The notes under the pieces: model-generated
Seen by the model: the letters and a program-made list of their open reading frames with translations, nothing else
Told to the model about the DNA's origin: nothing
Databases searched by the model: none
Shown here: one piece after another, positions 504 to 41,883 of the stretch
Position numbering within the stretch: position 1 is the stretch's first letter
Layout of the letters: every line of letters begins with the position of its first letter
Made by a program: the position numbers and the translations under genes
Assembly: GCA_024679065.1 (NCBI GenBank)
Contig: JAGIQG010000009.1
Coordinates: 90,520,001 to 90,584,000, forward strand
Direction of reading: 5' to 3'
DNA: 64,000 nucleotides
Source of the DNA: Sphyrna mokarran
Taxonomy: Eukaryota

Positions 504-961
504 TGTGGGAGCTGGCAACACCATACAATGCCTAATCACACGTGGCCTGATTAGGATTGGGTGAGATTCCCGTCATGATAAATGTAGATTATGCTGGTTG
601 ATGTGCAGTGTGGGCAATGCTCACCCTTGAGCTATTGCTTTGAGTGCAAGTCAGCCTCTGTTACAGGCATGAGTTGCTGGTCTCTATCACAGGGCAGGAA
701 CAGGCTGCAGATCAGCACCATATGTGTGCCCGGTGACAGCAGATTCCAAATAGTTCATGTCTGAACTGGCCTGGAGCTACAGCTGCTTCATCTGGTTAGG
801 CCTCAGTCAGCACATGGTACACTCCTCCTCACCTTGGAACATCAGCACTCAGTGCAGTTCCTGACCACACCCTGTGGCAAGACAATGCCCTCGTGGGGAA
901 GGCTATAAGAAGTCTCACAACACCAAGTTAAAGTCCAATAGATTTATTTAGTAGCACAAGC

Positions 962-996
962 CATTAGCTTTCAGAGCACTGCCCCTTCATCAGGTG
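962..996 (-). ncRNA. Minimal type I hammerhead ribozyme motif (Penelope terminal repeat)
   Basis: cac-CTGATGA-aggggc agt gctct-GAAA-gc-TA-atg; core intact, stem I has one mismatch. Confidence 0.6.
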
Positions 997-2568
997 AGTG
1001 GGAGTTCTATTCACAAACAAGGCATACAAAGACACAAACTCAATTTACAAAATAATGGTTGGAATGCGAGTCTTTACAAGTAATCAAGTCTTAAAGATAC
1101 AGACAATGTGAGTGAAGAGAGAGTTAAGCACAGGTGTGGCACATCAGAAATTGGTGTACACAGCATTACAAGGGGACACTGTCCACCGTGTCACATGTTT
1201 GTTTTCTGAGGAGGTCGGTGCGGCTTTTTCCTGTGGCACATCAGAAATGTTGATCGACGAATCGAGCATCATATCCTGTTCTCATGAGGGCAACCTACAG
1301 CATTTGGAGGTATCTGTTGCAATCCTCCTCATCTGAGCAGATCTGTGTATACGGAGGGCTTGTCTGTAGGGGATGGCTTCTTTAACGTGTTCAGGTGGAA
1401 GCTGGAGAAGTGGAGCATCTTGAGGTTATCCGTGGGCTTGCGGTACAGTGAGGTGCTGAGGTCCTTAATGGAATGCGTGTGGCCAAGAATGCAACTGATT
1501 CCAGAGAATAGTCCATGGTGAGTCTGATAGTGGGGTGGAACTTGTTGATGTCATCATATAGTTGTTTCAGTGATTATTCGCATTGAGTCCAAAGAAAGAA
1601 AATGATCAAGGATCGCAACAAACACCTCCAGACGCTGAAAGATGCCCTCATAAAGATCAGGATATGGCACCCAACTCATCAATCGCCACTTCCGATGCCC
1701 CACAGCGAAAAACCACACCAATCTCCTCAGAAAACGAACAGAGTACAGAGTAACCTTTGTTGTCCAGTACTTCCCTGGAGTGGGGAAGCTACAACATCTT
1801 CTGTGAAGTCTTCCATGTATCATTGATGAAGATGAACATCTCACCAAGGCATTCCCATACCCGCTTATTGCCTTCAAACAACCACATGATCTCAAACAGA
1901 CCACTGTTCACAGCAAACTACTCAACCTTCAGGGGAACAGTGACAACAACAGCACAAAATCCTGCCACAGCAACCTCGCAAGACATGATGGATCTTCGAC
2001 ATGGATGCCATCATCTCACGTGAGAATACCATCCACTGGGTACACGGTGCATACTCTTGCAACTCAGCCAACATTGTCAACCTGATATACTGCAGGAAAG
2101 GATGTCCCTTGGTACATTGGGGAGACTATGCTGACACTACAACAGTGGATGAATGAACATCGCTTGACAATCACCAGACAAGAGTGTTCTCTTCCTATTG
2201 GGGAACACTTCAGCAGTCACAGGCACTCGGCTTCTGATTTTCAGGTAAACGTTCTCCACAACACACAACACAGAGTCGCTGAGCAAAGACTGATAGCCAA
2301 GTTCTGCACACAAGGGTGGCCTCAATCAGGATCTTGTGTTCATGTCACACTAACTGTAACCCCCACGACTTGTCTGGGCTTGCAAAATCTCACTAACTGT
2401 CCTGTCTGGAGACAATACACATTTCTTTAATCTGTGCTTAACCCTCTCTCCACTCACATTGTGTGTACCTTTAAAACTTGATTACCTGTAAGGACTCGGA
2501 TTCCAACCATTATTTTGTAAATTGAGTTTGTGTCTTTATATGCCCTGTTTGTGAACAGAACTCCCGCT

Positions 2569-2603
2569 TACCTGATGAAGAAGTAGCACTCTGAAAGCTA
2601 GTG
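2569..2603 (+). ncRNA. Minimal type I hammerhead ribozyme motif
   Basis: tac-CTGATGA-agaagt agc actct-GAAA-gc-TA-gtg; predicted cleavage after 2600; palindromic AGCT in place of helix III. Confidence 0.6.
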
Positions 2604-2682
2604 GCCTTTGCTACCAACTAAACCTGGTGTTGTGAGACTTCTTACTGTGTTTACCCAAGTCCAATGCCAATATCTCCACATC

Positions 2683-2900
2683 GGGGAAGGCTGAGCAGAA
2701 CTCCTTCAGAGAATCTCCCACGCTAAGCTACAGCACTACCCTGGAGAAGGCTCAGCAGAACTCCTTCAGAGAACCTCCCATACTGAACTACAGAGCTGCC
2801 CTGGGGGAGAAGGCTCAGCAGAACTCTTTCAGGTTCTCTCATCCACTGAGCTATAGTGCTGCCCTCAAGGGGAAGGCTGAGCAGCACTCCTTCAGGGACC
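2683..2900 (+). repeat. ~60-63 bp minisatellite, about 3.5 copies
   Basis: Recurring gg(g/a)gaaggct(g/c)agcagaactccttcag...gc(a/t)gccct units. Confidence 0.8.
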
Positions 2901-3539
2901 TGTCTCCGTAAATAGAAGCCTCACCCAAGATATTACTGGTCCACAGGCCAACAATGGACACAGCCAAGAGGAAGCCCACCAAGCATCTCCAGGATGCTGC
3001 CTGCGACATCCCCCGCACTCCTCTTGCTTCAGGCCCACAGCATTTATCTCTTCAAGGCTGCCACATCTTTGAGATCTTTATAAAACTTTGATTCGCACCA
3101 AAGTTAAGTCATGCCCAAAGAAGTGGGAGATGCTAATATGGGTCAAGATTGCTGTATCAGTCCAAAAAATGACAAGCTAAACTATGGGAAGTGATGCAAA
3201 TTAGTGGTAGGCCGGTTTTCAACACGGTCCCAATGGCACCATTTTTTTCTGTTTGGGGGATACATACAGGTTGTAAACACTTGCAGGATACTGCGGGATG
3301 GCTGACACATATCTCCCAACCTGACCCACCATTAAATTAGTGGGTCAGAAAGGAGAATCGCACCCTTGGATTTCTAGAGTTTTATAGCGCAAAGACTTTT
3401 TTTCAATGCTGCTTTAGTGAAGCAGAGAATAAGGTCACAAATGGCAATTGATGAAGAATTAAAGGTGGAATCATCAATAGGAGGAGGAAGAATCTGCCTA
3501 TTAGAATTGTAGAAGACTGAAAGAAACTGTGTCCTGAAG

Positions 3540-7395: not shown

Positions 7396-8862
7396 TAAAA
7401 CCTCCCCCTCGCCTCGTGCCATATCTTGGAGACTGTGTACAGAAATCATTAAAATGCCATGAATTGTTGGAGAAAATAAACAGAAAGGTGAATGGAATGT
7501 TGGTTTAATTTCTGGAGGAAAAGAATCCAAAGAGATAGAAGAAATATTTCAGCTGTGGTTTGACCGTACCTGGGTTACTGGGAACAGTCCAGGTCCCTCG
7601 CAATACAAAGGATAGGCAGAAAGGCAGTGTAGATTGACGAGAATGATACCTGGACTCACAACAGTTAAATGATTAAGAGAGATTAGCGGGTTTAGTGAGA
7701 TAAATAGATTTTCTCTGGTTTCCTCCACATTCTGAAAGTCGTGCTGGTTAAGTGCATTGACCCGAAAAGGCTCCAGACTGTGGCGACTAGGGGAATTTCA
7801 CAGTAACTTCATTACAGTGAAAATGTAAGCTTTATTTGTGACTAATAGATAACTTTAACTTCACTTTAGATGAAAACAAGTGAGAGTTATATTCCCCAGA
7901 TTGTCAAAGGTTAAGAGATGAAATGATCAGATATTCAAGATATTATTGGGATAAGCTCGATAGCGAGAAATTATTTTCACCAATTGTTGAATCTAGGACT
8001 AAGTGACGTAGTTTAAAAATTAGAGTCAGACATTTTAGGAGTAAAACTTAAAAACACAACAAAGAACGGTACAAGTTTGGATCTCTCTTCCTCAAACAAC
8101 AAGCTAGATAAATTAATAATTTTACATCTGAGATTGATAGATTTTTATTATCCAAAGATATCAAGGGATGTGAAGCAGAGGCCAGTGGAGTTAGGTTGCA
8201 GGTCAATATGAGCTGATTGGATGATGGAATAAGAGCTTGGAGCTGAATGATTGACTCCTGTTCTTATGCAGACTGACACAAAGTATAGAGTATTTCTTGA
8301 TGATTGAGAAGATCTCATACATATTTTATGACTCTATCTTCACCCGTTATGTTGTTTTATACATTGCAATAGAGACCACACTTCAAAAATAATTTATTGC
8401 CTGTAAAACCTGTCTTGAGATATCCAATGCTTATGAGAGGTGCCACATGATTAAAAATATTTCATTTTCTTCTTTATTTAACTCTACATTTGAATAATTG
8501 AAATGTCACACCATCATCATTCTGTAACTTCTGTTTCTTTCTGTAATTTGTCTTCAGATCTGTTCCTCTAACTCCTTCCTACTATTTGATGGCCTTGAGC
8601 ATATACCCATATTTAATATTGTTCATCTTCTTTCATAATACAGAAATATTACTGTACATATGAAAAAGTGGAATAGGTCATTTGGCTCCTAGAGCATGCC
8701 CCACCATTCAATGGTGATTTGATCTGATCGTAATCTCAAATCCTCATTTCACTGATCCCATCTAACCTTTCACCCCCTTACTTGCCAAGAATCTATCTCC
8801 TCTACCTTAAAAATATTCACTTCTAAGGGTTAATGCATGGCCCGTAATACTGCCAATGGGAT

Positions 8863-9617
8863 GAATGTGCTCATGAGAAAGGCTTAAAAGATTATAAAGC
8901 TGGTTATTTTATAAGAACATAAGAGCTAGGAGCAGGAGTAGGCCATTTGGCCCCTCGGGCCTGCTCCGCCATTCAATACGATCATGACTCAGCTCCACTT
9001 ATCTGCCTGCTCACTATAGTCCCTAATTCCTTTACTGTTCAAAAATTTATTTATCCTTGCCTTGAAAACATTCAGTGAGGTAGCCTCAACTGCTTCACTG
9101 GGTGGGGAACTCCATAGATTCACAACACTTTGTGTGAAGAAGTTCCTCCACAACTCAGTCTAAATCTGCTTCCCCTTATTTTGAGGCCATGCCCCTTGGC
9201 CTCAAAAACATATAAAATTATGAAGGAAATAGATAAGATAGAAGTAGGGAAGTTGTTTCCACTGGCAGGTGAAACTAGAACCAAGGGGCATGGCCTCAAA
9301 ATAAGGGGAAGCAGATTTAGACTGAGTTGTGGAGGAACTTCTTCACACAAAGTGTTGTGAATCTATGGAGTTCCCCACCCAGTGAAGCAGTTGAGGCTAC
9401 CTCACTGAATGTTTTCAAGGCAAGGATAAATAAATTTTTGAACAGTAAAGGAATTAGGGACTATAGTGAGCAGGCAGATAAGTGGAGCTGAGTCATGATC
9501 GTATTGAATGGCGGAGCAGGCCCGAGGGGCCAAATGGCCTACTCCTGCTCCTAGCTCTTATGTTCTTATAAAATAACCAGCTTTATAATCTTTTAAGCCT
9601 TTCTCATGAGCACATTC
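8863..9617. repeat. Perfect inverted repeat: 337-bp arms (8863-9199 / 9281-9617), 81-bp spacer
   Basis: Arms read as exact reverse complements by eye; they include a CR1 3' end plus ~50 bp of non-CR1 flank. Confidence 0.95.
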
Positions 9618-10050
9618 TTCTGAATTCCAATGAGTATAGCCCCAGTCTATTAAATTCCTCCTCATAAGCTAACCCTCTCAACTCTGGAATCAACCTAGTG
9701 AATTTCCTCTGCAACCCCTCCAGTGCCAGTATATCCTTTTTTAAGTAAGGAGACCAAAACTGTACACAGTACTCTAGATGTAGCCTCACCAGCACCTATA
9801 CAGCTGCAACATAATCTCGCTGTTTTTAAACTCTATCCCTCTAACAATGAAGGACAAAATTCCATTTGCCTTCTTAATTACCTGCTGCACTTGCAAACCA
9901 ACTCTTTGTGATTCTTGCACAAGGACACCCAGATCCCTCTGCACAGCAGCATGCTGCAATTTTTTATCATTTAAATAGTAGTCCATTGCGCTGTTAATGC
10001 TACCAAAATGGATGACTCACATTTACCAACATTGTACTTCATCTGCATTA
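8912..10050 (-). mobile_element. CR1 LINE 3' portion rearranged by the inverted duplication
   Basis: [19 protein letters not shown] and YSLEFRRM fragments. Confidence 0.85.
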
Positions 10051-21859: not shown

Positions 21860-23390
21860 TATGAAAAGAACAAAGAAAGTTACAGCACAAGAACAAGCCC
21901 TTCAGCCCTCCAAGCCTACACCGGCCATGCTGTCTGAGTGAACTAAGATCCCCTACCCTTCTGGGGACCATTTCCCCCTATTCATGTATTTGTCAAGACC
22001 GCCCCCCCCTCCCCCAACCCCTTTATGTCACTATTATATCTACTCCCACTACATTCCCCGGCAGGGAGTTTCCAGGCACCCACGACCAGAATTGAACACT
22101 ATATTCCAAGTGTGCTCTAAAGTTCTATAGAGCTGCAATACAACTTGCCAATTTTTAAACTCAATGCTCCAGCCGATGAAGGCAAGCATGCCATATGTCT
22201 TCTTGACTACTTTTTCCACCTGTGTTGACACTTGCAGTGACCTGTGTTACTGTATACTCAGATCCCTTTGCCTGTCAGTACTCTTAAGGGTTCTGCCATT
22301 TACTGTATATTACCTATATGTATTAGACCTTCCAAAATGCATTACCTGATATTTGTCCAGATCAAATTCTATCTGCCATCTCTCCGCCCAAGTCTCCAAC
22401 TGATCTAGATCTTGCTGATGGTCCTCATCGCTATCCGAAAATCCGCCAATCTTTGTGCCATCCCCAAACTTACTAATCAAACCAGTTATATTTTCCTCCA
22501 AATCATTTATATATATTACAAACAGCAAAGGCCCCAGCACTGAACCCTGAGAGATGCCACTAGTCCCAGCCCTCCATTCAGAAATGTATCCTTCTACTGC
22601 TACCCTCTGTCTTCTATGACTAAGAAGTCTCACAACACCAGGTTAAAGTCTAACAGGTTTATTTGATAGCAAAAGCCACTAGCTTTCGGAGCACTGCCCC
22701 TTTGTTAGGTGAGTGGGAGTTCTGTTCACAAACAGGGCATATAAAGACACAAACTCAAGTTACAAAATAAGTCTCCACTTCTATGGCTGAGCCAGTTCTG
22801 TACCCATCTTGCCAACTCACCTTCATCTTCTGCACCAGTCTGCCATGAGGGATCTTGTCAAAGACCTTACTGAAGTCCATGTAGGCAACATCCACTGCCC
22901 TACCCTCATCAATCATCTTTGTCACTTCCTTGAAAAACTCAATCAACTTTATGGAGACACGACCTCCACTTCACAAAACCATATTGCCTCTTGATAATGT
23001 GTCCACTTATTTCCAAGTGGGAGTAAATCCTGTCTCGAAGAATCCTCTCCAATAATTTCCCTACCACTGATGTATGGCTCACCGGCCTGTAATTACCTGG
23101 ATTATTCTTGCTACCCTTCTTAAACAAAGGAACAACGTTGGCTATTTTCCAATCGTCTGGAACTTCCCATGTAGCCAGTGAAGATACAAAGATTTCTCTC
23201 AATGTCCCAGCCATTTCCTCCCTTGCTTCTCTCAGTATTCTGGGGTATATCCTATCAGGCTCTGGGGACTTGTCTACCTTAATGTTTCTCAACAATCCCA
23301 ATAACTCCTCCTTTTTGATCTCAACATGATCAAACCATCTACGCACACTTTCCCAGACTCATTATCCACCAAGTCCTTCTTTCTGGTGAA
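21860..23390 (-). mobile_element. CR1 LINE 3' half, disrupted
   Basis: GNYRPVS, MDFSKVFDKIPH and [11 protein letters not shown]; (gaacaaa) tail. Confidence 0.88.
22622..22777 (-). mobile_element. Short Penelope terminal-repeat insertion (internally deleted)
   Basis: Same terminus as 905; ends in a tctcca tail remnant; TSD cttctatgact / cttctatggct; hammerhead core decayed (CTAACAA). Confidence 0.8.
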
Positions 23391-27933: not shown

Positions 27934-27934
27934 C

Positions 27935-27957
27935 TGTGTGTGTGTGTGAGAGAGAGA
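27935..27957 (+). repeat. (TG)7(AG)n compound microsatellite forming the exon-2 acceptor tract
   Basis: tgtgtgtgtgtgtgagagagaga immediately adjacent to the exon 2 acceptor. Confidence 0.85.
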
Positions 27958-30900
27958 CAGGATTAAAATTAACAATATCTCACCCAGAGAAACTTAAACA
28001 TCACCCAACCCAAACAAACCCGAATAAACCGACTGAAACAATCATCCCAGAGCTGGAACACAAACCAGATTAAACTCATATTAATGAGCACATTTCCTCC
28101 TTTCATTAATAAATGATCCTTACTCAGGTTACCAGCTCCTTACTGTTTCCATGGCCGATCGGTTTGGATAGAAGCGGTTGAGGGACTTCACTTTGGGAGA
28201 AGTCAGACCAGCAACATCTACCGCAGAGGAGAAGACCTGGTGTCAAGCAGCGGTAAGCCTGAGACACTACATTAGCGTTTCCCTCCCTCACTCCTTCTCT
28301 AACCACTCAAGGCTGACCTGCTGCTCCTGAAGAGGTGTGGGATACCTCACTTTAACAGTTATAGGCTATGAAGAAGCAACTTCACCATCTCCAAAGTTAA
28401 GGAGACAGTGGGGAGGACGCCTACTCGTAGCAGACGTCACCTACAAGAACTGCTCTCTCTGGCTGATTAATGTGTATGTCCCTGTCATCAAGACCAAGCA
28501 ACTGTTAGTTTTAGAACAGATGCCACTGCTGCTCACCACTTCCACGCCATTCTGCATTATAGACACAGCTGGCCAATCTAACAGGGCTGAAAACAAACTG
28601 GATGCTGCGTGCAGACTCCTGTTGGAAATAGTTAAAGGTGCCAAGCTGCACAACGTCTTCAGTAACCAACGGACAGGGCGCAGTGTAGGTACATATGGTC
28701 GCGGCCAGACGGGTCCACTCCAAGATTGATTTCATGTTTGTATCCCATGTGCTCAGGGTCAGGTCCACCGACGTCAAGTCCGTGTTTTTTTCTGACCACT
28801 TCCTCCTGTTGGCCGACTGTCAGCTAGAGGAAAACCAAAAAGTGGGCAGGGGGTCCTCGAAGCTAAATGCAGAACTGTTGACCTCAGAGAACCTCAAGGA
28901 ACTCAAAAGGTTTACCATGGTTGGAGAACTGTGAAACCCTTCGTTGAGTTTCTATTGCTCTGGTGGGAAAGCTTCAAGGACAACATCAAGAAGTTATTCA
29001 TCACAAAGCGGTTCAGAAGGTCAGGGAGGGACGGGGAAAAACGTCCTGACTCCAGAAAAGCATGCAGGATCTATTCCAACTGCAGTGGATAGGGGTTGAT
29101 GTAAAGGAGGATCTCCGGGTGATGAACAGCCAGCAAGCCTCACTCTTTGCCTCGGAAGCCTCCAAGGTCATCTTCTGAAGCAGGGTCCACTCTGTGGAGC
29201 AGGACAAGACATGCTCACACTTCTTCTTCCAAAACGTGCTCAGAGAAACCTCTGTGATCAACAGCCTGAAGGAAGAAGACGGCTCAGTAAGGTCATCACA
29301 GTCTGACATTCTGACCATCTGCAAATCCTTCTATGCCGGACTGTATGACCTGAAGCCAACAGACTGCACGGCCTCCTAGTTTTTCCTATTGTCTATCACA
29401 CAGGTCTTAGACGACGGAGAGTAGGAGAGCCTGGACAGACCGGTATCTCTGGATGAGCTAACAAAGGTTGTCAAGTCCTTTCAGAAAGTTAAAACTCCCA
29501 GAAGCGATGGCTTACTGGCTGAGTTTTACTGAATGTTGTGGGACTTGATAGGCCTGGACTTGCTGGAAGTATACGAGAGTATGCTCCTGGAAAGCAGCTT
29601 GTCAGAATTCATGAGGAAAGACATCATTACCCTCATCTAAAGCAGAAGGGGAAAGGGAAGAAATTAGAAATTGGTGACCCATTTCACTATTGAACGTGGA
29701 TTATAAAATTCTAGCCAAGGTCATCGTCAACCGGGTCAAGGCTGCTCTGGGGTTAGTGACCCATCTTGATCAAACCTGTGCTGTACCCGGCAGGAAGATC
29801 TCTGACAGCTTAATGCTACTCAGGGATACGATCGCCTACGTGCAGGACAGGCGGGTGGATACGTGCCTCATCAGCCTAGACCAGGAGAAGGCGTTTGACA
29901 GAATATTGCACAGCTACAAGATGGATGTACTCTCCAAAATGGGCTTTAGGGAGGGAATCCACAATTGAATCCAACTGCTCTACACAGACATCAGTGGTGC
30001 AGTTTCAATCAACAGAAGGGAATCAGATAGGTTTCAGATTATTTCTGGGGAATCAGGCAGGGCTGCCCTCTTTCCTCCGTTGTTTGTCTGTTGCATTGAA
30101 CCCTTTGCCATGGCCCTCAGAAGTGTTCCCGGCATCAAAGGGGTGACAATTCCAGGCAGCGGAAGCACGCAGGTCAAAACCTCCCTGTACATGGATGACG
30201 TGGCTGTCTTCTGCTCAGACCCTCGTCTGTTCACAGGCTCTTCCAGGTTTGTGAGCAGTTCAAGCTGGCCTCGGGAGCCAAAGTCAATCAGGCCAAGAGC
30301 AAGGCCATGTTTTTTGGGAACTGAGCTGAGAGATCCTTTGTCCCCTTCACCATCAGGACAGATTACCTTAAGGTGTTGGGGATATGGTATGGAGTGGCAG
30401 GGGCATGCTTCAGAACTGGGAAGAGTGCATCGCAGAAGTGAGACAAAAATTGGGCTTGTGGGAACAACTCTCCCTCTCTATCATCAAAAAAAACCTGGTG
30501 ATCCGGTGCGAGGTGCTGTCCGTGTTGTTGTATGTGGCGCAGGTGTGGCCTATCCTTGCGCTGCAGCAGTGATCCAGGCCATCTTCAGATTTATCTGAAG
30601 ATTAAAGATGGATCATGTCCGAAGGGAAGCGATGCATAAATCTTCAGAGAATGGAAAGAAAATCATTCCTGCCGCCCTTATCCTGATGGCAACCTTTGTG
30701 TGCGGCTGCATCAAGCTATGTAGATCCTCGGTACACTAACAGCAAGTGCCACTATCTTTTGAGGTTCTACCTGTCTCAAGTGTTGCAGAGGATGGGTCTG
30801 GCCACACTGCCACAGAACACTCCAAGTAGTTGGACTGTACCGCAGCACTTGTCCTTCACGGAGAAATTTTTCCACGAGCACTCCATTGACCACATGGCGA

Positions 30901-31108
30901 TTAAGCAGTGGTCGGCACGTAACGTCCTTGAGGCCCTGAGAGAAAAGGAGATGGCGGATCCTGTCGGATGGTTCCCTGAGCAGACTGTCAGTGTCATCTG
31001 GCAAAATGCCTCATCATGTGGAGGTGCCAGCATTGGACTGGGGTAAACACATTAAGAAATCTCTCAACACCAGGTTAAAGTCCAACAGCTTTATTTGGTA
31101 GTAAACGC

Positions 31109-31143
31109 CACAAGCTTTCGGGGCTCTGCCCCTTCCTCAGGTG
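31109..31143 (-). ncRNA. Minimal type I hammerhead ribozyme motif, best-preserved copy
   Basis: cac-CTGAGGA-a-ggggc aga gcccc-GAAA-gc-TT-gtg: intact core, perfect 5-bp stem II, stem I cac/gtg, AAGCTT palindrome in place of helix III. Confidence 0.72.
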
Positions 31144-31171
31144 AATGTAGAACTCTCCACTGGTCTCCACT

Positions 31172-31206
31172 CACCTGATGAAGAGGCAGAAGCCCGAAAG
31201 CTTGTG
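31172..31206 (+). ncRNA. Minimal type I hammerhead ribozyme motif
   Basis: cac-CTGATGA-agaggc agaa gccc-GAAA-gc-TT-gtg; core intact, stem II weakened. Confidence 0.62.
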
Positions 31207-32024
31207 CTGTTTACTACCTAATAAACCTGTTGGACTTTAAACTGGTGTTGTAAGACTTCTTACTGAGAATGCCTCATCACCAAAACTACAAACAAGCACA
31301 AAGACCTGACTTGGCTGGTGATGAGAAGGCATTCCCCGTCAGATCCTTTATGCACACTCGAGGTCTCAACATCACTGCACGCTGCCTTCGAAGCAACTGT
31401 GGGGCTGATCAGATGGCCACACACCTTGTGGAATATGCCTTTGCAAAGAAGGTCTGGAGTGAGATGCAGTGGTATTTGTCGAGGTTTGTCCCGAGCAGCT
31501 CGGTGATGCAGGACTCTGTGCTCTATGGGCTGTTTCTGGGACGCACGCCGAGACAAATATCAACTGCTGGAGGGTCATCAACTTGGCAAAGGACGCAGTT
31601 TGGTCTGCCCGAAACTTGCTGATCTTCCAGTTGAAAGAACTGTCCTTGACCGAGTGTTGCAGACTAGCACATTCTAAGGTCCAGGACTATGGGCTGAGGG
31701 ACGCCCTGAAGGTTGGGGCAAATGCCACAAATGGGGAAAGGCCACACTATAAAACCTTTCAACTGAAGCAGACTGAGGGACCGGGAACTGTAGAAAACCC
31801 TCGGCCTGCATAATTGTGTGCCAATCTGAAAGATAACAGCACACAGTAAACTTACCAAATATATATAGTTTCAAGTACTGAAATGTAATCAGCCTTGCAA
31901 ATAAGCTTAGTAAAGTTTTGTAAAAATGACTATCTTTTTTGCACTGTTTGTAATTATCTGATCTATTGTTTTGCAAAGGCTTATTTGAGAGTATTTTTAT
32001 AAGGTATATTTTTGGAAAAAAAAA

Positions 32025-32208
32025 GGCCACTGTCTTGGGCTTGATCTACATAATCCAAGCTGATTGGAGTAGGCATTGCACCTCCTCCAAGACCAAGATG
32101 CCGCTTTTTAAAAATTGCTTCAAATGAAGCTGAAATATAACCTATTGACTTCAACCAACTACAGCATGTTGATACTACACTTGATCTTAGCCAAAAGGCC
32201 GAGTGGAT
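32025..32208 (-). mobile_element. U2 snRNA-headed SINE-like element
   Basis: 32203-32171 = CTCGGCCTTTTGGCTAAGATCAAGTGTAGTATC, matching vertebrate U2 nt 8-40 as recalled; followed by a non-U2 body sharing motifs with 38922-39140. Confidence 0.7.
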
Positions 32209-32209
32209 C

Positions 32210-35200
32210 GGGAATATCTCACTTGCTAACACTCTGAATTGGACTTTGATCGGATTGAATTGAACATTTAAACAAAAAAAAAGCCACCGTGAGAAGGTAA
32301 AAGTGAAGAGTTTTATAAATTTTCTCAAATAATTTAATTGGTTCTCAAAATGTCAATCAGTGAGGTTAAGTGCTGCACTTATGAGATGTGGGAGATCCAT
32401 GAAGCTTCTAATGTCTCGGACAACTACATCTGCAGGAAATGCACCCTGCATTTCCTGCAGATCCTTACAGAATGCATGGATAGGTTGGAGCAGCAGATGG
32501 ATGCGCTTAGGAGCATGAAGGAGGCAGAAGGTGTCACAGGTAGGAGCTTTGGAGACATGGTCACACCAAAGGTGCAGGTAGATAGATGGATAACCGTCAG
32601 AAGGAGCAGGTAGTCAGTGCAGAAACCCCCTGTGGTCATCCCCCTCTTTAACACGTATACTGTTTTGGGGGAGATGGCTTATCGGGATAACAGCAGCAGC
32701 AGCCAAACATAGAACACTACAGCACAAACAGGCCCTTCGGCCCACAAGTTGTGCCGATCATATCTATACTTACCAGGCCATAGAACTATCTGTAACTCTT
32801 AATCCCATTAAATCCCATATACTCATCCAGAAGTCTCTTAAAAGACTCCAGCGAGTTCACCTCTACCACCACTGATGGCAACCAATTCCATTCACTCACC
32901 ACCCTCTGAGTAAAAAACTTACCTCTAACATCCCCAGCACCTTAAATCTGTGTCCTCTCGTAGCGACCATTTCAGCCCTGGGAAATAGCCTCCGAGAATC
33001 CACCCTATCTAGTCCTCTCAACATCTTATAAACCAGGTTGCCTCTCAACCTTCATCTCTCCAGGGAGAAGAGACCTAGCTCTCTCAACCTATCCTCATAA
33101 GGCATGCCCCCCAATCCAGGTAACATCCTTGTAAATCTCCTCTGCACCCTCTCAATAGCTTCCACATCCTTCCTATAGTGAGGCGACCAGAACTGCACAC
33201 AATACTCCAAGTGGGGTCTGACAAGGGTCTTATAAAGCTGGCTCTGTTGTTAAGCACGGAGGAAAACGACGACTAGAGCAATAGTTATAGGGGAACTATA
33301 TAGATAGAGGTACAGATAGACATTTCAGTCGACGTGAAAGAGATTCCAGGATGGTATGTTGCCTCCCTGGTGCCAGGGTCCAGGATGTCTCTGAACAGAC
33401 AACATTCTGAAGGGAGAGGATGAACAGCCAGAGGTTGTGGTACATATTGGTACTAATGATATAGGGAGGAGGAGTGACAAGGCCCTGCAGCAGCAGTTTA
33501 GGGAGTTAAGTAGAAAGTTAAAAAGCAGGACCTATAGGCTTGTAATCTCAGGATTACTCCATGTACCATGTGCTAGTGAGGCTAGGAATAGTGAGGCTGA
33601 GATAATGCAACTCAACACATAGCTAAACAGCTGGTGTAGGAGGGAGGGTTTCAAATATTTGGACCAGTGAAGTCTCTTTCATAGCAGATGGGATCTGTAC
33701 AAGAAGGATGGGTTGCATCTAAACTGGAAGGGCACAAATATTCTATCTGGGAGATTTGCTAGTGTCACACTGGAGGATTTAAACTAGCTTGGCATGGGGG
33801 TGGGAACCAAAGCAAATGTGAATTAGCTGAAGGGGAACCAGAGAGTAGGACCAGTAAGACTCAGAGAAACAGCAGGCAGGGAGTGGGTTGTTAATCAAAG
33901 AGGGTCTGGTGACTGAAGTGCATTTGTTTCAATGCGAGAAGTGTAACACGTAAGGCAGATGAATTTAGAGCTTGGATTAGTACTAGGAACTACGATGTTG
34001 TTGCTATTACAGAGACTTGGTCAAGAGAAGGACAGGATTGGCAGCTTAATGTCCCAGATGTTTCGGGTGGGATAGAGGAGGATGTAAAAGAGATGGGGAA
34101 ATTGCACTGAGAATATCACAGCTGTATTCCAGGAGGACACATCAGAGGGCTCATACAGCGAGGCAATATGGGTAGAGCTCAGAGATAGGAAAGGTGTATT
34201 CACAATCTATAGGCTTTACTATAGGCCAGTAGGAGATAAAGGTACAGATGTGAGTAGCAGATTTGGCAAGGCACAAAAGTAACAAGATTGTTGTGAGGAA
34301 AATTTTTACTTCCCCTATATTGACTGGGACTCACTTAGCGCTAGAGGTGTGGATGGGGCAGAGTTTGTAAGGAGCATCCAGGAGGGCTTCCTGAAACAAT
34401 ATGTAGATAGTCCATACTGGACCAGATACTGGGGAATGAATCTGGCCAGGTGATCGATGTTTCAGTAGGGGAGCAGTCCGGGAACAATGACCATAATTCA
34501 GTAAGCTTTAAGGTACTGATGGATAAAGATAAGCATAGTCCTCAAGTTAAGGTGCTAAATTGGAGGGAAGGCTAATTACAACAGTACTAAACAGGAACTG
34601 AAGAATGTAGATTGGTGCAGATATTTGAGGGCAAATCAACATTTGGCATGTGGGAGGCTTTCAAGTGTAAGTTGATAGGGATTCAGGACTGACACATTTC
34701 TGTAGGGATGAAGGATAAGTATGGCAAGGTTTGGAAACCTTGGATAACAGGAGATATTGTGAGCCTAGTCAAAGAGATAAAGGAAGCATTTGTCAAGGCT
34801 GCGAACACACAAAGCAAGTGTGGAATACAATGAAAATAGAAAGAAACATAAGCAAGGAGTAAGGAAGGTTAAAAGTGGTCATAAAAAGCATTGGCCAGCA
34901 AGATAAAGAAAAATCCCAAGGCTTTTTATACATATGTATGGAGCAAGAGGATAGCCAGGAAGAGGGTTGGCCCACTCAAGGACAAGGGAGGGAAGCTATG
35001 CGTGGAGCCAGAGGAAATGGGCGAGGTAATTAAATGAGTACTTTGCGTCAGTATTCACCAAAGAGAAGGACTTGTTGGATGATGAGACTTGGAAAGGATG
35101 TGTAGATAATTTGAGCCATGTTGAGATCAAAAAGGAGGTGGTATTGGAGTTCTTGAAAAAAATTAATGGAGACAAGTTCCCAGGGCCTGACGAAATATAC

Positions 35201-38200
35201 CCCAGAATCGTGAGAGAGGCAAGGGAGGAAAGAAGGCATTTGTTAAGAAGGCATATGGAGTCTTAGCTTTTATTGGTAGGGGGATTGAATTTCGGAGCCG
35301 CAACGTCATGTTGCAACTGTACAAAACTCTAATGCAGCCGCACTTGGAGTATTGTGTACAGTTCTCGTCCCCACATTATAAGAAAAATGTGGAGGCATTG
35401 GAGAGGGTACAGAGGAGGTTTACCAGGATGTTGCCTGGTATGGAGGGCAGGTCTTATGAAGAGAGGCTGAGGGATTTGAGGTTGTTTTCGTTAGAAAGGA
35501 GGCGGCTAAGACGGGACCTAATCGAAACATATAAGATGATTAGAGGTTTAGATAGGGTGGACAGTGATAGCCTTTTTCCTAGGATGGAGAAAGCTAGCAC
35601 GAGGGAACACAGCTTTAAATTAAGGGGTGATAGTTATAGGACGGATATCAGAGGTAAGTTCTTTACCCAAAGGGTGGTTCGGGAGTGGAATGCCCTGCCT
35701 GCAGCAGTTGTAGATGCGCCAAGTTTGGTTGCGTTTAAGAGGTTAGTTGATAAATATATGGAAGAGAAGGGAATGGTTTAGTTTGGAGGGTCATTGCTTT
35801 TTATATTGGTCGGCGCAACATCGAAGGCCAAAGGGCCTGTTCTGTGCTGTAATGTTCTATGTTCTAACTGGGGGCCTGGAAAGAAATCTTTGTATCCTCA
35901 CAGGTTATTGCAGAGGTCCCAGAGGATTGGAGAATAGCCAGTGTTGTTCCTTTGTTTAAGTGTAACAAGAATAATCCAAGAAATTACAGGTCGGTGAGCC
36001 TTACACCAGTGATATGGAAATTATGGGAAAGGATTCTTCGAGACAGGATTTATTCCTATTTGGAAATAAGTGGATGTATTAGTGAGAGGCAATATGGTTT
36101 TGTGAAGGGGAGGTCGTGTCTCACGAACTTGATCAAGTTTTTCGATGAAGTGACAAGATGATTGAGGGTAGAACAGTGGATGTTGTCTATATGGACTTAA
36201 GTAAGGCCTTTGACAAAGTCCGTCATTGGCAGACTGATGCAGAAGGTGAAGTCACATGGGATTAGAAATGAGTTGGTAAGGTGGATACAAAACTGGTTCA
36301 GTCAAAGAACACAAAGAAATCCCACAACACCAGTTTAAAGCCCAAACAGGTTTATTTGTAGCAAAAGCCGCAAGCTTTTGGGACAGCCTGTCCCTTCATC
36401 AGGTAGCTGGGAGTTCTGGTCGTAAAAATGACACAAAGATACAAACTCAATTTACGTACATAATGATTGAAATGTAAGTCTTTACAGCTAATCGATTCTT
36501 AAAGGTACAGACAATGTGAGTAGAAAGAGTTTTAAGCACAGGTTAAAGAACTGTGTATTGTTTCCAGACAGGAAAGTTAGTGAGCATTTGCAAGTCCAGG
36601 CACATTGTGGGGGTTACAGATAGTGCAACATGAACCCAAAATCCTGGTTGAGGCCATTCTCAAGTGTGTGGAACTTGGCTATCAGTCTCTGTTCAGCAAC
36701 TTTGCGCTGTAGTATGTCCTGACGGCCAACTTGGAGAACACTTATCTGAAGATCAGAGGCCGAATGTCCATGACCACTGAAATGTTCACCAACAGGAAGA
36801 GAACAGTCTTGTCTGGTGATTGTTGAGCGGTGTTCATTCATCCGTTGTCTTAACATCTGCATGGTCTCCCAATATACTGCTCGACAATCACCAGGCAAGA
36901 CTGGTCGCTTCCTATTAAGGAACACTTCAGTGGTCATGGACATTCAGCTTCTGATCTTTGGATAAGTGTTCTCCAAGGTGGCCTTCAGGACACATGATAG
37001 CGCAGAGTCGCTGAGCAGAAACTGATAAGCCAAGTTCTGCACACATGGGAACAGCCTCAACTGGGATCTTGGGTTCATGTCACACTATCTGTAACCCACA
37101 CAACTTGTCTAGACTTGCAAAATCTCACTAACTTTCCTGTCTGGAAACAATACACATCTCTTTAACCAGTGCTTAAAGCTCTCTCCTCTCACATTGTCTG
37201 TACTTTTAAGAATCAATCAGCTGTAAAGACTCACATTCCAATCATTATGCATGTAAATTCAGTTTGTGTCTTTGTGTCATTTTTACAACCAGAACTCCCA
37301 GCCACCTAACAAAGGACAGGCTGTCCCAAAAGCTTGCGGCTTTTGCTACATATAAACCTGTTTGGACTTTAAACTGGTGTTGTGGGATTTCTTTGTGTTT
37401 TACCCCAGTCCAAAGCCGGCATGTCCACATCATGTCAATCAAAGAAGATAGAGGTTAGCTGTGGAAGGGCACGTTTCTGAATGGAGCGTTGTGACAACTT
37501 GCTTTCCTCAGGTTCAGAGCTAGGACATTTGCTGTTTGTAATATCTATAAGTGATTTGGAGGAAAATGGAACTGGTTTGCTTAGTAAGTTTGCGGATGAC
37601 ACAAAGGTTGGTGGATTTGCGGATAGCGACGAGAACCATAGAGCAGGATATAGATCAGCTGGAGACTTGGGCAGACAGATGACAGATGGAGTTTAATCCA
37701 GACAAATGTGAGGTAATGCATTTTGGAAAGCCTAATACAGATAAGAAATATACAATAAATGGCAGAACTCTTAAGAGTATTAATAGCAAAGGGATCTGGG
37801 TGTATAGGTACACAGGTCACTGAAAGTAGCAGTGCAGATTGAGAAAGTAATTAAGAAGGCATACAGCATGTTTGCCTTCATCGGCCAGGGCATTGAATTT
37901 AAAAATTGGCAAGTCATGTTACTTTATAGAATCTTATAGCTTTATAGAATCTTAGTTAGGCCGCACTTGGAATCTAGTGTTCAATTCTGGTCGCCATACT
38001 GCCAGAAGGGTGTGGACGCTTTGGAGAGGATACAGAAAAAATTTACCAGGACGTTGCCTGGTATGGAGGGCATTAGCTATGAGGAGAGGTTGGAGAAACT
38101 TAGTTTGTTCTCACTGGAACAACAGAGGTTGAGGGGAGACCTGATCGAAGTCTACAAGATTATGAAGGGCATGGTCAGAGTGGATAGTCAGAAGCTTTTT

Positions 38201-38490: not shown

Positions 38491-38921
38491 TCTGTTAACC
38501 TCTGATTAAATTCCTGTCTGGATTTTTATTAGAGTGGGGATGTACATCATGGTGAACTTCCCATCTTGCTTTGTCCCTGAGTTTGGTTTATTTGGTTGGC
38601 ATGAAAAGAATTGCCAATTACTGGAAGGAAATGAGATATACGTCAGGGTCAAATCTAGAATTGTCCAGAACTCACCATCTAAACTGAGGATGGCAGGCAG
38701 GGCTCCTGGCACTGGAGGAACCCTCTTCCTCCACTGGCTGGGTGTGGCTGGGATTTGCCAATTTTGATTAAATGTATTACTGCAGGTTTCATTTCATTCC
38801 TAAGCTCCAATCAGCCAACACACCCATCTCTATGACCCACAGCCTTTCTACATCAATTGGAAAACAAAAAAAACTCATTACACAACTGGGATAATGCATG
38901 ATTGTCAGCCAAACAGCACTC

Positions 38922-39140
38922 ATGGTTTCTCAGCCTTTTGGCTGGGATCAGGTGTCAGATCAGGCCTAAGATAGGGTGCGATGCCTTATTTTTGTCAGTT
39001 TAGATCTTGTTTGTCTTTCTTGTGGGGATCATGAATTGGATTTTCAATTTGGTTTTGGAGCAAACAAGGAATGGATTTGGATCTGCCCGGTCCACTCTGA
39101 GCACTGGCTTTGTAACTTTAAAGATGGAAGAAAAAAAAGA
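38922..39140 (+). mobile_element. U2 snRNA-derived SINE-like element / retrocopy with A-rich tail
   Basis: atggtttctcagccttttggctgggatcaggtgt resembles the U2 5' end; ttttggagca...atgga..gga.ctgcccggtccactc resembles the U2 Sm site and stem III; ends gaaaaaaaaga. Confidence 0.65.
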
Positions 39141-39142
39141 TT

Positions 39143-39400
39143 CATAGAATCCTTGTAGCGCAGAAAGTGGCCATTTGGCCCATTAAGTCTGCACTGTCTC
39201 TCCAAAAGAGCATTTTATCCACGCTTGCCCTTCTCCCCCATCTCCTCTGCATTTAGCATCATTAATCTATCTAACCTATACATATCTGGAGGAAACCCAC
39301 ACAGACATGGGGAAAACATACAAATTCCGTACACAATCATCCAAGTCTGAAATCGAACCTGGGTCCTGACACTGTGAGGCAGCAGTGATAACCCACACCT
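39143..39400 (-). mobile_element. HE1-like SINE
   Basis: catagaatcc tail, gaggaaacccacacagac core, antisense B-box aatcgaacc. Confidence 0.8.
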
Positions 39401-39428
39401 CCTCTGTAAATATTTTTTAGCACAAGAC

Positions 39429-39590
39429 AAAAACTGAAAATGCTGTATGAACTTAGCATGTCTGACAGCATCTGTGGAAAAGCAGTTAATGTTTCAGATC
39501 CAAATGAATCTAAACTTTGTCCAGTTTATTATGGGTTTTTCTAGCATTTTCTGTTTTTATTTCAGATTTCCAGCATCTGCATCTGCAGTA
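39429..39590. mobile_element. Short inverted element of a second probable Penelope-like family (related fragments 59890-59990, 61800-61900)
   Basis: Inverted ends aaaactgaaaatgct / agcattttctgttttt plus a one-sided tail; shared cagcatctgtgga block; the 61868-61894 copy keeps CTGATGA..GAAA on the minus strand. Confidence 0.5.
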
Positions 39591-40045
39591 ATTAATCTTT
39601 TTTAATGTCTGGTAAGGAGAAACATTTTAACAATGTCCCTTATTTAATATCCTTATGATTTATCTGTACACAACAGCATTCTGTGGATTGATGTTCAATT
39701 CCCAGAGACTTCAGACCAATCCTGCAATTTGTCATTTTCATCATCCAGAATGCTGACCCCATCGCATACTCCACCCTCCCTAGCTATTCCCAACCCTACC
39801 TCCATCCCCATCTACTGCCAGGAAGCTGCCACCTTTGTATTTACAGTCACTGCGAGGGACAGGGAAAATGGCAGGAGAGGGTGGGTAAGTGGGAGTGTGG
39901 GGGTGAATGGAGGCAGGGGAGTGATGGGTAGAACATGATCTTTACAAACACCTTAACTGGCTTAATAAGTTACCTATTAAGTGAACGTGTTCTTATGATA
40001 GTTATTTGATTTATTATTGTCACATATATTGGTTTTTACACACTA

Positions 40046-41883
40046 GAAGTCACACAACACCAGGTTAAAGTCCAATTGGTTTGTCAGGTAAAATCCTTTG
40101 TCAAGTAAGCAGGAGTTCAGTTCACAAGCAGAACATATAAAGACACAAACTCAAATTACAAAATAATGGTTGGAATGCAAGTTTTTATAGCTAATCAAGT
40201 CTTAAAGGTACAGATAATTTGATTGGAGACACATTAAGCACAGGTTTAAGAGATGTGTATTATCTCCAGCCAGGACAATTAGTGACATTTTGCAAGCCCC
40301 ATGGGGGTTACAGATTGTGTAACATGAACCCAAAATCCCGGTTGAGGCCGTTCTCATGTGTGCAGAACTTGGCTATCAGTCTTTGCTCAGTGACTTTGCT
40401 CAATGAGTCATGCCGCCTTGGAAAACACTTAGCCGAAGATCAGAAGCTAAATGCCGTGAATGCTGAAGTGTTCGCAACAGGAAGGGAACAGTCTTGCCTA
40501 GTGATTGTCGAGCGATATTCATTCATCCATTGTCGTAGCGTCTGCATGGTCTCCCCAATGTACCATACCTCAGGACATCCTTTCCTGCAGCGTATTAGGT
40601 AGACAACGTTGGCCAACTTGCAAGTGTATGTACCAGGTATCTGGTGCACAGTGTTCTTAGGTGAGATGATGGCATTCATGTCAATGATCTGGCATGCCTT
40701 ACAGAGGTTGCTGTGATAGGGTTGTGTGATGTCTTGGTCACTGTTCCCCTGAAGGCTGTAGTTTGCTACGGACGTTGGTCTGTTTAAAGTCTTGCGGTTG
40801 TTTGAAGGCAAGAAGTAAGAACATGGGGATGGCCTTGGCAAGATGTTCATCTTCATCAATGACATGATGAAGGCTCTGGAGAAGATGTCATAGTTTGTCT
40901 GCTCTGGGGAAATACTGGACAACGAAAGGCAGCCGTGTCTGCTGTGTCCCGTGTTTGTGTTCTGAGGAGATTGGTGTGGTTTTCGCTATGGTGTATTGGA
41001 ATTGTCAATCGATGAGTCGAGTGCCAAACCCTATACTTACAGACTTAAGCGTCTATACTTAAAGATGCTTAAGATGCACCTTTAAGCATCTGGTGGTATC
41101 TGTTGCAATCCTCCTCATCTGCGCAGATTGTCAGCAGCAAACTACCCAGCCTTCAGGAGAACAGTGACCACGACACCACAACAACTTCTGCAAGACATGC
41201 CGGATCATTGACAAGATGGCATCATCTCACGTGAGAACACCATTCACAAGGTACATACTCTTGCAACTTGGCCAATGTTGTACACCTGATAACGCTGCAG
41301 GAAAGGATATCCTGAGACACTCGCTATGACAATGGATGAATGAGCACCGCTCAACAATCACCAGGCAAGAGCGTTCTTTTCCTGTTGGGAACACTTCAGC
41401 AGTCATGGGCATTCAGCCTCTGATTTTCAGGTAAGCATTCTCCAAGGCGGTCTTCACGACACATGACAACGCAGAGTCACTGAGCAGAGACTGATACATG
41501 AGAACGGCCTCAACCAGGATCTTGGGTTCATGTCATACTATCTCTAACCCTGACGACTTGTCTGGGCTTGCAAAATCTCACTAACTGTCCTGGCAGGAGA
41601 CAATATACATCTCTTTAACTTGTGCTTAACTCTCTCTCCACTCACATTCTCTGTACCTTCTAAGATTTGATTACCTGTAAAAGCTCGCATTCCAAACATT
41701 ATTTTGTAAATTAAGTTTATGTCTTTATATGCACTGTTTGTGAACAGAACTCCCACTTACCTGATAAAGGGGCAGCACTCCGAAAGCTAGTGGCTTTTGC
41801 TTCTAAATAAACCTGTTGGACTTTAACCTGGTGTTGTTAGACTTCTGTGCTTATCCCAGTCCAAAGCTGGCATTTTCACATCA
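40046..41883. mobile_element. Penelope-like element, inverted two-part copy
   Basis: GIY-YIG motif NVVYLIRCRKGCPEVWYIGET (ORF 40440-40922); inverted termini; right-hand tail; perfect TSD ttttacacacta (40034-40045 / 41884-41895); hammerhead at 41758-41792 with G8A. Confidence 0.9.

Follow-up and report, generated by a model that had tools for sequence, protein, structure and literature searches.

How does a retrotransposon come to lie in the genome as two head-to-head arms of which only one carries a tail? Five insertions in a 64,000-nucleotide stretch of shark DNA (the window) raise this question. They lie where a preliminary description had placed them, each between target site duplications (TSDs) that are exact or carry one mismatch (Table 1); an equivalent search, run at random positions of the window, yielded 1/600. 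Copies 1, 3, 4 and 5 are head-to-head, as that description had it, and one arm of each is tailed; the one-sided tail ascribed to all five is absent from copy 2, which is a single tail-less arm with 7 nt of filler.

Table 1. Features of the five insertions, in window positions.
Feature	Position	Strand	Remarks
Copy 1 left TSD	895..904	.	10 bp exact; right copy 2683-2692
Copy 1 tail-less arm, 3' part (pLTR)	906..1135	-	Hammerhead core from 993, both boxes intact, first stem I pair broken
Copy 1 tail-less arm, upstream part (RT core end and thumb)	1170..1604	-	By blastn; tblastn to ORF residues 538-664
Copy 1 tailed arm	1609..2682	+	Broken thumb, Cys linker, GIY-YIG, 3' UTR, hammerhead 2572, tail ~2645-2682
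Copy 2 left TSD	22611..22621	.	11 bp, 1 mismatch; right copy 22778-22788; empty site TG-N16-CA
Copy 2 single tail-less pLTR arm (22622-22770) and 7 nt filler	22622..22777	-	Hammerhead core decayed; no tail
Copy 3 left TSD	31005..31016	.	12 bp exact; right copy 31268-31279
Copy 3 tailed arm	31017..31147	-	Best preserved hammerhead: core from 31140, stem I 4 bp, stem II 5 bp
Copy 3 tail-less arm	31167..31265	+	Hammerhead core 31175, intact boxes
Copy 4 left TSD	36298..36309	.	12 bp, 1 mismatch; right copy 37435-37446
Copy 4 tail-less arm	36310..36877	-	5' end 47 nt longer than tailed arm; hammerhead with G12 changed
Copy 4 tailed arm	36876..37434	+	Hammerhead decayed
Copy 5 left TSD	40034..40045	.	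12 bp exact; right copy 41884-41895; empty site TG-N16-CA
Copy 5 tail-less arm	40046..41128	-	5' end 321 nt longer than tailed arm; hammerhead mostly deleted
Copy 5 tailed arm	41127..41883	+	GIY-YIG remnant, 3' UTR, hammerhead 41761 (G8 changed), tail

The window copies are old, decayed, 5'-truncated insertions of an endonuclease-bearing (EN+) Penelope-like element (PLE) with a minimal hammerhead ribozyme motif, and they align to residues 538-893 of its open reading frame (ORF). In copy 1 an internal deletion of ~700 nt separates the two parts of the tail-less arm, which extends 287 nt further 5' than the tailed arm, and stem II of the right-arm hammerhead is broken. The arms of copy 3 are separated by a 19-nt spacer (31148-31166), and the copy 4 tail ends in ATG (37432-37434), the same ATG that opens the ORF in tandem copies. 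A covariance-model search, with a model built on 30 arms of which three came from the window, found exactly nine window arms, all within the five copies, in agreement with the preliminary assignment. Five copies in 64 kb is about the ordinary density, since 702 kb of fetched DNA held 82 arms lacking any search motif. The features that drew attention, the ribozyme motif and the mirror-image layout, are known biology: the preliminary reading as a PLE is supported, and its inverted arm, tail, pseudo-LTR (pLTR) and minimal hammerhead, the last with an AGCU palindrome, have been published before (PMC4209133, 10.1101/2021.04.23.441226 and PMC3846280). What the analysis adds concerns the origin of the inverted arms.

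Copies elsewhere in the genome were gathered by motif searches, a 90-nt DNA query having returned nothing; they number in the tens of thousands, with thousands of young insertions. The unit of ~3.0 kb has a single 893-aa ORF with a reverse transcriptase (RT), a CX4CX2C linker and a GIY-YIG endonuclease with CCHH, and a young subfamily keeps this ORF intact (natural example L122:2868-5549). Pfam RVT_1 matches residues 430-559 (E 1e-9) and GIY-YIG matches residues 792-832 just below the cut-off (E 4e-4, score 21 vs 22.6). The linker C755-X4-C760-X2-C763 is kept in 50/50 aligned homologues and endonuclease residues C798, C802, H838 and H844 (also H822) in 49-50/50. The protein is 84-88% identical to shark proteins, residues 1-190 reached a pLDDT of 34 in a single-sequence structure prediction, and a phage search gave no match. 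A quick tree without clade-labelled references placed the RT near sea-turtle homologues, a position that does not name the clade. The hallmarks of EN+ PLEs are present: partial tandems forming pLTRs, an inverted 5'-truncated copy, a 30-40 bp tail and a TSD. The tail is the last 31-35 nt ahead of the ATG and ends at the ATG in tandem copies.

Judged by its sequence, the element is an EN+ PLE, probably of Neptune type. Such PLEs, as set out by Craig et al. 2021 (10.1101/2021.04.23.441226), likewise have a single ORF with RT, a CX2-5CxxC linker plus, at the C terminus, a GIY-YIG with CCHH, as well as partial-tandem pLTRs, an inverted 5'-truncated copy, a 30-40 bp tail at one end and a pLTR hammerhead. 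The same text gives the linker as common to Neptune and Nematis and absent in Penelope/Poseidon, and ties it to microsatellite targeting (Neptune, Naiad), whereas the shark element has a bipartite target and clear TSDs.

The preliminary description placed a hammerhead in every repeat, intact or decayed. Both catalytic boxes are intact in four of the nine window arms (left and right in copies 1 and 3), while little of the motif survives in the left arm of copy 5. Across the genome, 393/464 arms parsed as hammerheads with up to two mismatches allowed per box. H17 was C, U or A in 383/393; letters that the parser itself looked for were found at similar rates, with A as the extra nucleotide before 10.1 in 378/393 and each position of the palindromic AGCU matched in 376-386/393. 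The core is nearly invariant across 60 young long arms; N7 takes all four bases, against 83-99% fixation at the remaining core positions, where most departures are of CpG type. Stem II has 3-6 bp, and the youngest subfamily has a stem I of only 2 bp and a G-U pair at 10.1-11.1. None of the 16 matches with E up to 10 in an Rfam scan of the window was to a hammerhead family, the outcome to be expected of a motif that lacks helix III. Minimum-energy folding gave z-scores of 0.0-0.6, and in a dimer calculation the active form did not stand out; neither result weighs on either side.

Stems I and II were paired in 91% of cells across subfamilies, with a covariation score of 0.588 that no shuffle reached (0/500; slid controls at most 0.21), in a set of 30 hand-picked rows (29 with intact cores); about 5-6 subfamily-level events underlie the covariation. 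Because both stems covary across subfamilies and only core position 7 varies freely, selection on the hammerhead fold in master elements is supported. The earlier claim of such selection therefore stands for subfamilies genome-wide and not for the window, where the covariation is not significant: ggggc/gcccc and ggggc/gctcc differ by a change of G-C to G-U on one side only, full pairing of gggacag/ctgtccc needs a 1-nt loop and so leaves 6 bp at most, and the score of the eight alignable window arms was reached by 153/500 shuffles.

It is doubtful, in our estimation, that the motif is kept instead as a protein-binding or RNA-pairing structure, or that its stem changes reflect hairpin-templated mutation, with no cleavage in vivo. 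The catalytic positions stay constant and the variation at N7 and H17 is of the kind that hammerhead chemistry permits, a pattern that hairpin-templated correction cannot produce, and stem I covaries as well as stem II. The anole element cleaves with protein help, although its cleavage is dispensable for insertion and unseen in RNA-seq (PMC11167929), and minimal hammerheads cleave poorly (PMC4209133, in part). The 2-bp stem I of the young subfamily favors a non-cleaving motif, as do the arm ends: at the predicted cut site (unit 2929/2930) 5' ends show no excess, with 2/154 arms ending within 1 nt, as in background, and densities of 0.68 per nt ahead of it and 0.87 per nt past it. Nor were arms bluntly joined at the cut in any of 44 near-symmetric loci, where 26 junctions fall at a GC microhomology including the cut position, 17 at the AGCT palindrome and one elsewhere; given this microhomology, such junctions are explicable without cleavage. 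Loci with 0-9 nt spacers numbered 200, of which the analysis covered 50.

Arm ends cluster further upstream, with 65/154 at unit 2878-2901 (2.7 per nt, against 0.3 per nt just upstream). Since short arms mostly extend past the cut site and stop ~50 nt upstream of it, most templates were probably uncleaved, and the RNA 5' end likely lies at unit 2878. A splice acceptor there is the weaker reading, as its YAG is not preserved in all subfamilies. Two raw RNA runs from a related species gave 0 reads, a result that carries no weight, and one RNA contig set covers the pLTR but neither shows ends nor proves transcription.

The insertions share a symmetric target. Among 78 sites with exact 11-15 bp TSDs, targets take the form (C)TG-N16-CA(G), with a TG..CA spacing of 16 in 45 (2.5 expected) and five or six of the six target positions matched in 53 (3.4 expected). 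TSDs are mostly 11-14 bp, and the modal layout is 2+12+2, in 15 of the 45 sites with spacing 16. Older copies of the window type have spacing 16 in 3/14 and 17 in 4/14 (p 0.009). In the window, empty sites of copies 2 and 5 read TG-N16-CA, and two of the five copies have no TG..CA pair.

We suggest, with a probability of roughly 0.7 drawn from sequence comparison, that the head-to-head form arises when the enzyme nicks both strands of this symmetric target and primes reverse transcription from each nick. Two endonuclease domains, probably in a dimer, would each read one half-site and nick ~2 nt inside it, placing the nicks 12 bp apart. One reverse transcription would start at the tail end and the other ~35 nt upstream, and the two like-sense cDNAs would be joined at their 3' ends by end joining through microhomology, short palindromes or small inserts. 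About half of the events would complete from one nick only and leave a single arm. In a positionally unbiased young set ~36 of ~71 insertions were inverted, although inverted ones have two chances of selection, so the earlier view of inversion as the normal product is about half true. Single-arm insertions often have no detectable TSD (one was found in 31/100), which, like the two window copies without a TG..CA pair, counts against dual priming. LINE-1 offers a parallel in twin priming, where both nicks prime reverse transcription and yield a 5' inversion joined by microhomology. Its pieces neighbor each other without overlap in one RNA, whereas in the shark element each arm begins no more than 35 nt from one common end and the overlap is nearly complete.

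Paired arms bear directly on this reading. Of 91 inverted pairs in young copies, 85 combine a tailed and a tail-less arm, six are doubly tail-less and none is doubly tailed. Leaving out one segmental duplicate and the six doubly tail-less pairs, the tail-less arm is longer in 30/84, the tailed in 26/84, and the two agree within 5 nt in 28/84; the youngest insertions (n=53) divide 16/17/20 in the same order. Junctions were scored in the 77 pairs that remained after seven without a TSD were dropped. Inserts occur at 34/77, and microhomology of at least 2 at 19 of the 43 insert-free junctions (6.7 expected).

A hybrid route seems improbable to us. In it priming would occur at both nicks, one of the cDNAs being just a short stub that provides its end, and the second arm would be mostly copied from the first cDNA after folding. 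Such a route would account for the concordance of arms (same subfamily in 66/69 pairs), for their correlated lengths (rho 0.64; 7 short-long pairs vs 32 expected) and for asymmetry in either direction. Concordance and correlation are also predicted by self-copying, and to that extent count against dual priming. The hybrid fails, however, at the 17/77 junctions that have no insert and a loop of less than 3 nt, where priming by a hairpin is impossible, and it also fails where linked variants upstream of the second start site distinguish the arms. One insertion, C1 near 42.64 Mb, combines two established variants five changes apart. Arms within one young insertion differ at 15/342 hypervariable ribozyme sites against 49/6540 other sites, a partly circular comparison, since these very copies served to define the hypervariable sites; the appearance of two templates could also stem from mutation hot spots or gene conversion.

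Pure self-priming, the fold-back mechanism of the preliminary description, fares marginally worse. One tailed cDNA would fold and be copied back short of its tail, later deletions at the palindrome center leaving unequal arms. Palindromes can lose their centers after insertion, which could create either arm asymmetry. Concordant subfamilies and lengths suit this route too, and it has been proposed for PLEs from palindromic junctions (PMC3846280, in part). In the older set the tailed arm is longer in 17/26 and the tail-less in 5/26, with 3/31 seemingly doubly tailed, although these copies were largely picked with tailed or RT queries and some of their junction inserts may be merely alignment ends. 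Against it, the tail-less arm reaches further 5' in three of the four inverted window copies, is the longer one as often among the youngest insertions as in the whole set, and is so by more than 1 kb in L112, L115, L121, L122, L124 and L125 and by at least 150 nt in L130. Only 26/77 junctions have a geometry that permits self-priming on the tailed strand, and of these only four show microhomology of at least 2 while 14 carry inserts. Loop-less junctions and discordant arms argue the same way, and the symmetric target and fixed second end point are left unexplained.

That the short inverted copies form a separate non-autonomous family, MITE-like or retrozyme-like, moving as a unit is very hard to sustain despite many 150-300 bp palindromes with TSDs: junctions and lengths vary from copy to copy, one exact junction recurs at only six loci genome-wide, lengths run continuously up to full ORFs, and a tandem-repeat scan of the window found no ribozyme array. 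A MITE or foldback DNA transposon, which would have symmetric fixed ends and an internal structure common to its copies, was rejected because the tail sets the two ends apart and junctions vary between copies, and a non-LTR retrozyme because the window has no ORF-less head-to-tail hammerhead array and its copies bear ORF remnants.

Dual priming can be set beside related systems. The Poseidon element of Anolis carolinensis, PAc, encodes a protein that in vitro nicks both strands and extends each of them (Frangieh et al. 2024, PMC11167929); two RT start sites bound its tail, a dimer is predicted, and hammerhead cleavage is unneeded for insertion in vitro. PAc belongs to a different clade without the Cys linker and prefers AT-rich ATT, and its ORF starts in hammerhead stem II with the tail inside the ORF, whereas the shark element has both hammerhead and tail upstream of its ATG. 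Searched by word, the main text of that study showed no treatment of TSDs or inverted insertions. The Adineta vaga Penelope (Arkhipova et al. 2013, PMC3846280, in part) shares the head-to-head inverted pLTR, one tailed arm and junction palindromes, with a 31-bp tail and 8-10 bp TSD. The model given there is self-priming on an antisense template, whereas two end-joined like-sense cDNAs would give head-to-head arms from sense RNA. For the tail, 10.1101/2021.04.23.441226 (in part) invokes endonuclease resolution, whereas the shark data fit a second RT start.

The motif itself matches the metazoan PLE minimal hammerheads of Cervera and De la Pena 2014 (PMC4209133): CUGANGA and GAAA boxes, an extra nucleotide between 9 and 10.1, a palindromic 15.2-16.2, a short helix I and high variability with compensatory changes. 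Stem II, at 7-8 bp, is longer there than in the shark. The paper reports such hammerheads in fish Xena, Poseidon and Neptune, and its results and discussion do not name sharks. Animal non-LTR retrozymes resemble the shark element in their type I hammerhead and relation to pLTRs, and occur in the one chondrichthyan sampled (10.64898/2026.07.22.740005, in part). They form ORF-less head-to-tail arrays, while the shark copies lie dispersed and are truncated forms, single or head-to-head, of an element with coding capacity.

The origin of tandem and inverted PLE structures is called undefined in 10.1101/2021.04.23.441226, the published model is antisense self-priming (PMC3846280, in part), and the single in vitro study of two-strand activity draws no link to inverted insertions (PMC11167929). 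Neither a target motif nor dual priming for PLEs was found in the literature covered, outside which lay most subscription papers, Repbase/Dfam entries and supplements. The fullest version of our reading stands at about even odds: a shark Neptune dimer would read the palindromic (C)TG-N16-CA(G) in the manner of a restriction enzyme, nick 12 bp apart and run two simultaneous reverse transcriptions from two fixed starts, sometimes on two RNAs; dual priming would generally give rise to the inverted arm of PLEs and to their tail at one end; and an intact copy, active until recently, would exist with which to reconstitute the system. Since this genome offers young insertions in the thousands, a symmetric target of defined form, two mapped starts and an intact natural ORF, the dual-priming model is directly testable, and a bipartite palindromic target in a retrotransposon is of interest to the field of target-primed integration.

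All five Penelope-like (PLE) insertions reported in the window are real, with target-site duplications (TSDs) of 10, 11, 12, 12 and 12 bp (two of the five with one mismatch); a comparable match arose at 1 of 600 random window positions. A covariance model of the terminal repeat matched nine arms, each an element end repeat with its upstream part, and every one lies inside these copies. Nine arms in 64 kb is an ordinary number: where no search motif guided the choice of arms, 702 kb contained 82. The preliminary description gave each insertion a tail at one end only, which holds for copies 1, 3, 4 and 5, where the arms are head-to-head and the other arm ends ~35 nt short, but not for copy 2, which maps on the family reference as a lone tail-less arm. 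In copies 1, 4 and 5 the tail-less arm is the longer one, by 287, 47 and 321 nt respectively. The window copies are broken and 81-92% identical to an older family reference, and the tail of copy 4 includes the ATG of the ORF. Copy 1 inserted at a minisatellite edge, because a tandem repeat starts in its right TSD; copies 2, 3 and 4 seem to lie within LINE remnants. Outside the PLE copies, the window holds an inverted repeat that presumably resembles a LINE 3' end (CR1-type) and is either a recent inverted duplication or an assembly artefact, and two U2 snRNA-like sequences that are probably pseudogenes.

Features of the window, with positions in nucleotides
Feature	Position	Strand	Remarks
PLE copy 1	905-2682
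PLE copy 2	22622-22777
PLE copy 3	31017-31267
PLE copy 4	36310-37434
PLE copy 5	40046-41883
Tandem repeat	2686-2901		60-63 bp period
Inverted repeat	8860-9199 / 9281-9620		340 nt, 100% complementary, 81-nt spacer
U2 snRNA-like, decayed	32057-32208	-	under Rfam gathering score
U2 snRNA-like, decayed	38922-39084	+	under Rfam gathering score
LINE-type reverse transcriptase fragments	29969-30598, 35191-35781, 44729-46087, 62864-63832

The family is abundant: a 19-mer taken from the window's subfamily has 31,764 exact matches in the genome, and one from a younger subfamily has 27,420 (reversed controls, 0 each). Two motif searches for young insertions gave about 4,900 and 3,500 hits. Young copies are 97-100% identical to their consensus, a unit of 3,024 nt whose positions are used below; the tail of tandem copies comprises the final 31-35 nt ahead of the ATG. 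By the definitions in the available text of Craig et al. (10.1101/2021.04.23.441226), the predicted protein points to Neptune and excludes Penelope and Poseidon, although Nematis shares its linker. The best-matching proteins, with 84-88% identity, come from sharks. Several young copies (the copy L391, and segments of C1 near 6.36 Mb and 7.84 Mb) lie within older members of the family. Among near-full-length young copies chosen for the 5' part of the ORF (L111-L130), the long arm mostly ends at the tail-less site, and L126 is the only one whose long arm is tailed and alone. L122 is a naturally intact copy.

Within the window, both catalytic boxes of the hammerhead motif are kept in four of nine arms, and the left arm of copy 5 is without most of the motif. 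The proposed stem II changes with retained pairing are weak examples here (one is a one-sided change, another needs a 1-nt loop), and the covariation score of the eight alignable window arms was reached by 153 of 500 shuffles. Genome-wide, the claim that the fold is under selection is supported. Anchoring downstream of the motif and allowing two mismatches per box, we parsed 393 of 464 arms. Position 7 held all four bases (140/125/91/37), H17 was C, U or A in 383 of the 393, and the remaining core positions were 83-99% fixed; where they departed, the change was mostly CpG-type. Pairs 10.2-11.2, 10.3-11.3, 10.4-11.4 and 2.2-1.2 scored above all 1,000 shuffles. For a hand-picked set of 30 arms, 29 of which have intact cores, 91% of cells were paired and the covariation score of 0.588 was reached by no shuffle and no slid control. 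On a tree that excludes the ribozyme, this covariation amounts to some five or six double changes at the level of subfamilies, such as stem I CAC/GUG to UGC/GCA, which together with the pairing argues for selection on the predicted fold; cleavage is putative. The available text of Cervera and De la Pena (PMC4209133) describes such motifs in fish Neptune elements, in agreement with selection on the shark fold.

The core hardly varies across 60 long arms of young copies, in which the most variable sites are N7, loop II and the 3' half of stem I. Stem I of the youngest subfamily is 2 bp, against 4-5 bp in old ribozymes. Minor fractions at unit 2904, 2913-2921 and 2932-2934 (N7, loop II and the stem I 3' strand) are 0.43, 0.09 and 0.21, far above the 0.014 at third positions of the ORF in copies otherwise 97-100% identical. 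Arm ends fall at unit 2878-2901 in 65 of 154 arms from inverted insertions, with fewer directly upstream, and these 154 arms show no step at the predicted cut, 2929/2930. The simplest reading is that the RNA would start near unit 2878 and be copied uncleaved from start sites within its 5' repeat. Microhomology accounts for the junctions that lie close to the cut genome-wide.

Inverted insertions make up about half of the young insertions, at ~36 of ~71 by our count among 100 motif hits taken without bias; the fold-back route proposed for them is doubtful. In 188 segments of young copies chosen by position, 91 head-to-head pairs comprised 85 tailed plus tail-less, six both tail-less and none both tailed; tail-less ends gather at unit 2985-2993 and tailed ends mostly at ~3021-3028. 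After removal of one duplicate and the six doubly tail-less pairs, 84 remained: 30 in which the tail-less arm was the longer by more than 5 nt, 26 in which the tailed arm was, and 28 with nearly equal arms (16, 17 and 20 in the youngest 53). A tail-less arm cannot template the tail and no arm can be copied from a shorter one; therefore both arms need the RNA in such cases, barring later trimming deletions. We favor, at a probability of roughly 70%, dual priming, in which both target strands would be nicked, reverse transcription would be primed at both nicks, one from each of two tail-bounding sites, and the two cDNAs would then be joined to give head-to-head arms. Twin priming is an L1 process. 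Differences between arms at hypervariable ribozyme sites (15/342 versus 49/6540 elsewhere, a partly circular comparison) and one short insertion carrying two established variants, one per arm, count for both arms coming from RNA. Counting against it, the arms of one insertion are from the same subfamily in 66 of 69, their lengths correlate, and the tailed arm is longer in 17 of 26 of an older, biased set. Most of the data fit a single RNA or source locus, mixed now and then.

A hybrid, in which both nicks prime but the second arm is mostly copied from the first cDNA after fold-back, is improbable. Among 77 junctions with TSDs, self-priming on a tailed strand is possible at 26; the asymmetry is reversed in 27, another 17 lack an insert and leave a loop below 3 nt, and seven are near-symmetric with an insert; inserts occur in 34 of the 77, and microhomology is enriched. 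Palindromes may lose their centers by deletion; pure self-priming with such later deletions is likewise improbable. Self-priming requires an antisense template (available text of PMC3846280) that dual priming dispenses with. Dual priming also agrees with the in vitro behavior of the Poseidon protein of an anole, for which cleavage and extension of both strands, two start sites bounding the tail and a predicted dimer are described (PMC11167929); a shark dimer is putative.

The tail can pair back with an upstream GTTGGAYT motif (unit 2954-2961; window 41810-41865), one pair reading C-G, U-G or U-A across subfamilies. Of the two start sites, the tail-less one lies within this stem-loop and the tailed one directly follows it, and a GCCGGC palindrome occurs in the tail of 83 of 219 parsed arms. 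The stem-loop or palindrome is possibly a protein-binding or RNA-pairing signal.

The initial observation is real and mostly as described, and element and ribozyme are of a known kind: the inverted copy, one-sided tail and hammerhead are typical of PLEs in the available text of 10.1101/2021.04.23.441226, PMC3846280 and PMC4209133. In the main texts of the open literature we found neither dual priming for PLEs nor a target motif like YTG-N16-CAR; shark ribozymes or insertion sites may be listed in supplements. Of 77 TSDs, 69 measure 11-14 bp. Among 78 empty sites that we rebuilt, 45 have TG and CA separated by 16 nt (2.5 expected) and 21 by 17 nt, and five or six positions of YTG-N16-CAR match in 53 (3.4 expected). 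In the commonest arrangement, TG and CA flank a 12-bp duplication, each at a distance of 2 nt. The older subfamily gives a weaker signal (spacing 16 or 17 in 7 of 14); window copies 2 and 5 fit TG..CA exactly and copies 1 and 4 do not. Judging from the rebuilt sites, we infer that such two-fold symmetry around a staggered cut would be expected from two endonuclease domains acting jointly, and it is this bipartite target, with the arm statistics, that is worth following.
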